A stretch of DNA of 64,000 bases from a virus. Under the pieces are notes generated by a model. The model was not told the DNA's origin. It worked only from the letters and a program-made list of their open reading frames with translations, and did no database searches. Below are positions 18,372 to 18,857 of this stretch, piece by piece (positions within the stretch are counted from its first letter, which is position 1; each line of letters starts with the position of its first letter). Where the stretch lies: the UHGV virus genome UHGV-0026213; one strand, given 5' to 3'. The position numbers and the translations under genes were made by a program.

Positions 18372-18857
18372 ATGAAACGTTTACACACATTGATGTTCTT
18401 TCTGGTTTTCTTGTTTATCGGTACCACGCCAACTGTAGATGCGGCCTCCGTAGACGAATTGCTTACCTGCGATGGAAACGCTTGGGAAGGTCAGCCAAAT
18501 GCGTGCCCAAACATCAACGACTTGTACGATACCGATAAGTCGTTTAAAGCCGTTGTTGATAAAACATTAGACCCTGTGGGGCTGGATGGTATGTTCGGCT
18601 CTAAAGGTTACATGGATGGTCCTGGCGGTAACATGTATCCGGTAAACATCAACAACAAAATCTGGATTGAAAGTGGCGGTTGTAAAGCTAACGCTTGTGG
18701 TTGGGAATACATCGTAACGCTATACAACCCACACACCAAGAAACTCGTCGGCTATTACTACAACATCGACCCCGGTTATCTGATTTGGTTCGGTGATATC
18801 GGTGTTGCTGAATTCGCTTACCTGGTTAAGAAGTACGTAGAACAATCTAAATACTAA
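18372..18857 (+). CDS. Secreted protein, Ivy-like (candidate periplasmic lysozyme / lytic-transglycosylase inhibitor fold)
   Basis: Signal peptide MKRLHTLMFFLVFLFIGTTPTVDA. The loop GGCKANACGWEYIVTLYN..LVGYYY aligns by eye with E. coli Ivy SACKPHDCGSQRIAVMWS..MTGLFS (recalled). Confidence 0.4.
   Translation: MKRLHTLMFFLVFLFIGTTPTVDAASVDELLTCDGNAWEGQPNACPNINDLYDTDKSFKAVVDKTLDPVGLDGMFGSKGYMDGPGGNMYPVNINNKIWIESGGCKANACGWEYIVTLYNPHTKKLVGYYYNIDPGYLIWFGDIGVAEFAYLVKKYVEQSKY

Follow-up and report, generated by a model that had tools for sequence, protein, structure and literature searches.

The virus genome UHGV-0026213, of which a 64,000-nucleotide stretch was analysed (one strand, referred to below as the window), carries at 18372..18857 on the + strand a gene whose product is almost certainly a secreted protein of the Ivy superfamily, a bacterial lysozyme-inhibitor scaffold. 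Close relatives of the gene are found in chromosomal islands of E. coli. Tentatively, and as something just short of an even call, we propose by analogy that the protein is made early and inhibits, in the periplasm, the enzymes with which incoming phages cleave the wall. In this role, which is similar to that of Spackle in T4, it would serve superinfection or competitor exclusion and protect from lysis from without.

The open reading frame (ORF) starts with ATG, has AAGGAG 8 nt 5' of the start and encodes 161 amino acids. Its N-terminus, MKRLHTLMFFLVFLFIGTTPTVDA with AS following the presumed cut, resembles a Sec signal peptide; by inspection it has n-, h- and c-regions and a V-x-A cleavage site and is without a lipobox. 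The signal peptide would thus take up 18372-18443 and the mature part 18444-18854, which contains four cysteines (C33, C45, C104 and C109). The initial annotation, made from the sequence alone, had described a secreted-looking protein similar to Ivy, and the signal-peptide-like start is consistent with export. The peptides it quoted are also where they should be (KSFKAVVDK is residues 56-64, and WIESGGCKANACGWEYIVTLYNPHTKKLVGYYY is residues 98-130), while the distance between the two, given as about 40 residues, is 33 when counted.

When the protein is searched on its own, it falls outside the thresholds of the curated Ivy families (Pfam PF08816, NCBIfam NF007443). A Pfam scan of the single protein gave no match at E <= 10, so that the PF08816 model misses it, and a PHROGs scan gave a non-significant match only (E = 0.076). 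With the NCBIfam model NF007443, the protein scored 18.6 bits (E = 1.3e-3), where the cut-off is 180; for one E. coli homologue, E was 3.9e-4. The NCBIfam match spans the loop region discussed below, in the same register as the alignment to E. coli Ivy that had earlier been made by eye. HMMER confirms that register, pairing CKANACGW..YNP..VGYYYNIDP with CKPHDCGSQRIAVMWSEKSNQMTGLFSTIDE and FK.A with KAAFNQMVQ.

From 1.84 billion representative proteins, a profile built on the nine closest sequences (A1) recovered 55 relatives, and the full-length distant ones have a C-[EKQ]-x-H-N-C-G loop. Pfam Ivy PF08816 is matched by 26 of the 29 aligned family members at E <= 1 (best 7.6e-12), with the caveat that the intermediate sequences were recruited using the clade's own profile. 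In the PDB, the 29-sequence profile finds 1gpq and 1xs0 (E = 8e-13) as well as 1uuz and 4ps6 (~1e-9), and no other match. A comparison with the Ivy family at the profile level, which the initial annotation had proposed as a check, was made with hhalign: the clade and an Ivy-family alignment seeded with E. coli Ivy match with 99.8% probability (E = 1.1e-29, 144 columns). The resemblance to Ivy far exceeds chance. Taken together, the results from profiles, hhalign, AlphaFold2 and Foldseek identify the protein as a divergent member of the Ivy superfamily.

The AlphaFold2 model built from the 29-sequence alignment has a predicted local distance difference test score (pLDDT) of 89.0 and a predicted template modelling score (pTM) of 0.79; it supersedes an earlier model of moderate quality from 9 close sequences (pLDDT 66.5). 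The order of its elements is that of Ivy, with two helices, a five-stranded antiparallel sheet and a C-terminal helix. In a Foldseek search of the PDB with the earlier 9-sequence model, Ivy accounted for all of the top 8 matches, and significance fell off sharply after them. Ivy alone is thus above background in the structure searches, as one would expect from the fold that had been suggested at the outset.

Canonical Ivy blocks a peptidoglycan glycosidase with a loop that is inserted into the active-site cleft of the enzyme. The counterpart of this loop in the window protein, read from the sequence, is C104-K-A-N-A-C109 (codons 18681..18698, +), which aligns with the CKPHDC of Ivy as the initial annotation had it and which lies between model strands 96-104 and 112-119 (strands 2 and 3). 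C104 and C109 are invariant across all 29 family members, and they probably form a disulfide closing a rigid, protruding hexapeptide loop. By alignment, this loop is the most strictly conserved element of the whole family. The family consensus of the loop is C-E-x-H-N-C-G, and 90% or more of the sequences aligned for the Ivy family (A4) keep its His, whereas the window protein has N107 in this position, a replacement that had been spotted earlier. Within the clade, loops follow the pattern CK[AS][NHD][AT]C, with Asn, His or Asp at the His position. His is absent from most clade alleles and from all phage alleles, and is kept as CKAHAC in some E. coli alleles; K105, G110 and W111 are conserved within the clade. 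Allele variation is highest at residues 85-89 and 100-104, which by hairpin register would adjoin the loop. Variation beside the loop is the pattern expected for a binding surface under conflict and is an indirect indication of one. Asn in place of His, together with the variable loop-flanking residues, fits a retargeting away from C-type lysozyme.

At least 90% of the 29 family members share the other two cysteines, C33 and C45 (codons 18468..18506, +). E. coli Ivy, as aligned by hhalign, is gapped at C33 and lacks a Cys in the C45 column. This extra pair without a match in E. coli Ivy, the loss of the functional His and the failure of the Pfam Ivy model to find the protein could all be taken to mean that the Ivy fold has been repurposed, and that the protein binds another periplasmic ligand or protein, possibly with the 136-amino-acid partner encoded next to it, and inhibits no glycosidase. 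The partner, with which the gene travels, is of unknown fold, and distant relatives are fused to unrelated domains (e.g. the caspase-like Peptidase_C14). We consider such repurposing improbable. The inhibitory element, the disulfide loop, is the very part that is most strictly conserved, with its cysteines invariant and K105, G110 and W111 kept in the clade, and the partner is absent beside the gene in the E. coli islands L001-L006. With regard to the fusions, it is P0063 among the distant relatives whose Ivy-like domain is joined to a C-terminal Peptidase_C14; three others (P0024, P0026 and P0068) have in common a Cys-rich C-terminal domain of ~150 amino acids that belongs to no known family. 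The genomic context of one further distant relative (P0028) was uninformative.

The proposal of an early inhibitor draws on the position of the gene, the third of five tightly packed ORFs (17477-19679, +; gaps of 10-22 nt) that all have a signal-peptide-like start. In front of them, at 17404..17427 (+), is the motif TTTCAGATATATATTACTTAGGTG, which resembles jumbo-phage early promoters and matches a consensus built from the published motifs of phiKZ (TATATTAC), OBP and 201phi2-1 (PMC7058600). According to a review, such motifs mark operons that are transcribed by the virion RNA polymerase (PMC7598289). In degenerate form (TTTYARRNNKATATTAYNWNNGTG), the motif has 5 copies in the window where 0.07 would be expected (13016-13039, 17404-17427, 25588-25611, 35078-35101 and 44197-44220), all of them on the + strand and 5' of + strand ORFs. 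The copy at 17404-17427 is kept in the sister phage L012 and in an E. coli island, and 17373-17447 matches intergenic sites of phages similar to SPN3US and phiEaH2 at 89-91% identity. As the motif matches the published phiKZ-like early-promoter consensus, early expression of the operon is a reasonable inference. A sigma-70 promoter scan returned fewer sites than in shuffled controls, and Rfam had no match in 16000-21000.

Made early from a promoter of the virion-RNA-polymerase type and exported by Sec, the Ivy-like protein would accumulate in the periplasm of the infected cell. There it would block the muramidase or lytic-transglycosylase domains of later virions, from the same or from other species, and the phages so blocked would fail to breach the sacculus or to lyse the cell from without. 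That inhibition would go through the loop is suggested by analogy with the loop of canonical Ivy. The initial annotation had named two possible targets, the virion enzymes of incoming phages and the phage's own secreted SLT enzyme. The early-promoter-like motif favours the former, as does the reported effect of an E. coli gene on T7: according to the PHAGEPACK preprint (bioRxiv 10.1101/2024.04.20.590424), T7 plates more efficiently when Hypo_04657 of E. coli O121 is knocked down by CRISPR interference (CRISPRi). The same preprint says that Hypo_04657 combines a helical segment with an Ivy-like domain whose loop is CKANTC, so that both the similarity of the E. coli protein to Ivy and its altered loop have already been noted there. 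Among the sequences retrieved here, CKANTC is found in E. coli alleles only (P0011, P0012 and the truncated P0015), and Hypo_04657 probably belongs to the same clade. T7 lysozyme is an amidase, and the glycosidase of T7 that acts in the periplasm is an SLT-type domain within the ejected protein gp16. A virion lytic transglycosylase is therefore more plausible as the target. Against bacterial lytic transglycosylases, canonical Ivy has only a weak inhibitory effect (PMC10139938). Potent inhibition of SLT domains would for this reason be a change in specificity, in agreement with the changed loop.

Several points weigh against an inhibitor aimed at incoming phages. The loop is described as essential for lysozyme inhibition in Ivy (a statement in PMC4262234 citing Abergel 2007), and the His that is absent here matters in Ivy by mutagenesis, according to the summary in the same source. 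Hypo_04657 was placed in the clade by its loop motif and domain description, not by its sequence. CRISPRi knockdown is polar, and the effect on T7 could come from the downstream 136-amino-acid gene. The early timing is suggested by a motif match, and the inhibitor activity and target of the clade members by analogy. Finally, an early-type motif, with 2 mismatches, also stands 5' of the phage's own SLT gene, which leaves room for self-regulation.

Membership of the Ivy family may also bring to mind enzymes that do not come from phages. The protein might protect the sacculus by keeping the lytic transglycosylases of the host in check while the long cycle of a jumbo phage runs, or by blocking animal lysozyme at infected gut bacteria, as has been proposed for canonical Ivy. 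Ivy and Ivyp1/Ivyp2 are reported to inhibit MltB and, partially, MltA/B (PMC10139938). Some E. coli alleles retain the His (CKAHAC). The E. coli carriers in general are mostly from animal hosts. However, the His needed against C-type lysozyme is missing in most alleles and in all those from phages. Alleles turn over fast and are exchanged between phage and host, which is easier to reconcile with a conflict among phages than with a target that is a conserved enzyme of the host, and the reported knockdown phenotype concerns phage plating. Protection from non-phage enzymes therefore seems unlikely to us.

The phage's own SLT enzymes are two in number, as had been stated before: a secreted SLT lytic transglycosylase of 232/241 amino acids, which is a putative endolysin (25698/25671..26396, +; PF01464 E = 8.8e-15), and a virion/tail protein of 2058 amino acids with an SLT domain at residues 1683-1769 (57807..63983, -; PF01464 E = 3.7e-7; phrog_3201 'tail fiber protein' E = 0). 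The latter exemplifies the kind of enzyme that the Ivy-like protein is proposed to block on incoming phages. The N-terminus of the secreted SLT, MFRIFFLLLVTLFAFNAQA, is strongly hydrophobic and has a site between AQA and S, and it looks more like a cleavable Sec signal than like a signal-arrest-release (SAR) anchor. With this N-terminus, and with a promoter-like motif with 2 mismatches at 25588, 5' of its gene, the enzyme could reach the periplasm before lysis and need restraint. The Ivy-like protein, which would occupy the same compartment, might then be a means of self-control, keeping the exported endolysin (25698..26396) inactive until the trigger for lysis. Yet 110 deposited phage genomes share the secreted SLT (57 at >=80% coverage), whereas tblastn with the Ivy-like protein found no match to its clade in any of 50,697 deposited phage genomes, so that an obligatory inhibitor-endolysin pair is unlikely. 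SPN3US and phiEaH2 have an unrelated gene in the place of the Ivy-like one, and E. coli islands retain the Ivy-like gene with no phage SLT alongside. Self-control of lysis is in our view quite unlikely. Directly 5' of the SLT gene lies the gene for a Macro-domain protein (25037-25597, +; PF01661 E = 6.5e-6).

Short intergenic DNA matches and protein synteny assign the window to a jumbo phage of the SPN3US/phiEaH2 type. The gene order agrees with that of SPN3US and phiEaH2, which runs gp180, gp181, gp182, gp183, two more genes (SPN3US gp184 and gp185) and an SMC-like gene. The slot of gp181 is filled in both by a different secreted protein with no detectable similarity to the Ivy-like protein, and the Ivy-like gene has therefore replaced a gene of the cassette in the lineage of the window phage. 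The possibility that SPN3US gp181 and its phiEaH2 counterpart are diverged homologues of the Ivy-like gene was considered and rejected (BLASTP E = 2.6). The viral fold library BFVD gave no match and no Ivy-fold entry at E <= 1e-3. In IMG/VR, two contigs (~220-225 kb) carry the Ivy-like gene at 99% identity and are in effect the same phage; the database also contains a sister lineage with the gene (L012 and L013). Between the window and this lineage, three upstream genes are 91-95% identical and the downstream ones 76-82%, with a sharp drop in DNA identity at the start of the Ivy-like gene. At 64-66%, it is the most diverged gene of the neighbourhood (72-95% for nine other genes).

The operon is bounded on the left by a terminator-like hairpin at 17350..17370 (+; GGTGGGGGTTTACCCCCCACC, then a T-run), which would end the upstream unit, and on the right by another at 19690..19710 (+). 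Gene 1 (17477..17938, +) encodes 153 amino acids with a signal-peptide-like N-terminus (phrog_3429, E = 2e-7), and gene 2 (17961..18353, +) encodes 130 amino acids with a hydrophobic N-terminus and is a homologue of SPN3US gp180 by synteny and phrog_9424 (E = 5e-40). After the Ivy-like gene come gene 4 (18869..19279, +), the secreted 136-amino-acid partner of the SPN3US gp182 family (phrog_8968, E = 3.5e-33), and its paralogue gene 5 (19290..19679, +), a secreted protein of 129 amino acids of the SPN3US gp183 family (phrog_5248, E = 5e-31; it also matches phrog_8968; alignment A3). The two paralogues have three invariant cysteines. Neither singly nor as the profile A3 did the four neighbouring secreted proteins give an informative match in the PDB or Pfam. 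As a whole, 17477-19679 resembles a cassette that encodes periplasmic effectors and in which one slot can be exchanged. An 859-amino-acid SMC/RecF-like ATPase is encoded after this region (20891-23470, +), as in SPN3US.

Several known proteins can be compared with the window protein. Members of the Ivy family with a known structure (E. coli Ivy/YkfE, 1GPQ and 1XS0; P. aeruginosa 1UUZ and 4PS6, the latter being PA3902; Pfam PF08816) are 14-17% identical to it. It differs from them in the Asn in place of the loop His, in the additional conserved C33/C45 pair, in falling below the curated thresholds and in being encoded by a virulent-type jumbo phage, in an operon that looks early. The only canonical Ivy homologue in deposited phage genomes is found in Escherichia phage PHB10, a 57-kb coliphage (MK524177.1, protein QBJ00744.1). 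This protein is annotated as hypothetical, is 38% identical to E. coli Ivy (E = 8e-23), retains the His (CKPHSC) and is outside the clade of the window protein. Its gene (MK524177.1 14588-15001; L022 2950-3363) is located next to the lysis cassette, on its downstream side, ~0.5 kb 3' of the gene that follows the endolysin. T4 Spackle (gp61.3) is an early exported periplasmic phage protein that inhibits the wall-cleaving domain of superinfecting virions (PMC7677548 and PMC7650644). We use it as a working analogy in which the proposed logic would be the same and the fold is different. Homology to gp61.3 was not found; the structural searches return only Ivy above background, and the PHROG scan matched the Ivy-like protein to no annotated exclusion protein. 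Spackle targets a T4-type lysozyme (gp5), whereas the target proposed here would include SLT domains. In the literature, we found no description of an Ivy-type protein in a jumbo phage, of the five-gene secreted-protein operon, or of a phage origin of the E. coli genes. The fold assignment taken alone is modest, and its value is increased by the operon, the transfer into E. coli and an exclusion hypothesis that is experimentally tractable. If the hypothesis is true, this would be a second, structurally unrelated case of the Spackle strategy, and the first on a bacterial lysozyme-inhibitor scaffold. To our knowledge, few good inhibitors of lytic transglycosylases are known, and the alleles that differ at the loop position (N, H, D) would be a ready set for mapping the specificity of proteinaceous ones.

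Outside these phages, the closest relatives of the Ivy-like protein are E. coli chromosomal 'hypothetical proteins' at 59-66% identity, of the same clade and with loops of the type CK[AS][NHD][AT]C. Matches to the family are present in 2333 of 5426 complete E. coli genomes (in 1930 over >=80% of the gene), and all E. coli examples among the matches listed are annotated as hypothetical. The genes are found in CP4-44-like islands, with dynamin-family, RdcB-family and patatin-like genes on one side and DUF932, antirestriction, RadC and CbeA/CbtA genes on the other. In contrast to the window gene, these copies are chromosomal and often annotated as a fusion of 223-227 amino acids. They share flanking phage-derived DNA with the window, including the partner gene, which blastn finds in many islands (67% protein identity between the window and L023, 76% between L012 and L025). 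As an example, the O157:H7 island encodes the Ivy-like WP_000775497.1 and the 136-amino-acid partner WP_000846711.1. Islands L001-L006, as mentioned, have the Ivy-like gene without the partner. Other islands have a decayed remnant of the phage's 130-amino-acid gp180-like gene 5' of the Ivy-like gene, and some have, further upstream, the region of the promoter motif (TTTCAGATATATGTTAC...GGTGAG) at 80% identity. The phage-derived segments, delimited by blastn, are low in guanine plus cytosine (GC): L002 9019-10473, L023 8185-9125 and L026 4806-5915. The GC content of the captured segment is 40-47%, that of the surrounding island 52-57% and that of the phage window 45%.

The genes for the 130- and 136-amino-acid proteins belong to PHROGs that are conserved in SPN3US-type phages. 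As the flanking genes are conserved in these phages and the GC content of the segment is phage-like, the transfer ran from jumbo phage to bacterium. The opposite direction, from host to phage, was rejected for the shared segment as a whole, since its flanking genes are old residents of SPN3US-type phages and its GC content is that of the phage. The islands keep the Ivy-like gene intact although the neighbouring phage gene has decayed. This retention, the spread of the family among E. coli genomes, the divergence of the gene between sister phages and the variation beside the loop count, as signs of selection, in favour of the proposed inhibitor. Judging from the alleles, which are mosaic between phage and host, the exchange continued after capture; the Ivy-like part of one E. 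coli protein (P0013) has 2 differences in ~124 aligned residues from the allele of the sister phage (L012). More doubtful is a further step, in which the Ivy-like gene, possibly with its 136-amino-acid neighbour, would be an early exclusion module neutralising virion lytic transglycosylases, would have been captured by E. coli together with its promoter motif into CP4-44-like islands and, carried by ~40% of strains, may serve as a periplasmic anti-phage defence. If the proposed mechanism of inhibition is right, it would give a function to a 'hypothetical protein' matched in 2333 complete E. coli genomes, O157:H7 included, would explain the T7 phenotype and would document the domestication by a host of genes from a virulent-type jumbo phage. 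PADLOC-DB gave no match at E <= 0.01 for the window protein, P0002 or P0011.

It is worth noting that it is in itself unusual for a host chromosome to have fixed DNA from a virulent-type jumbo phage. Some E. coli contigs (P0013, P0014 and L025 1462-2292) encode chimeras of an N-terminal fragment of dynamin or YjcZ and the last two thirds of the Ivy-like protein, which indicate deletions within the island. The annotated 'long form' of 223-227 amino acids is an in-frame fusion in which the first ~65 codons of an upstream gene for a 180-amino-acid secreted protein are joined to the MKRL start; examples are L002 9098-9640, P0007, P0009, P0011, P0012 and WP_000775497.1 of O157:H7. Because this 'long form' is used as the reference, RefSeq tags the intact gene of 160 amino acids in some genomes as 'partial, missing N-terminus'.

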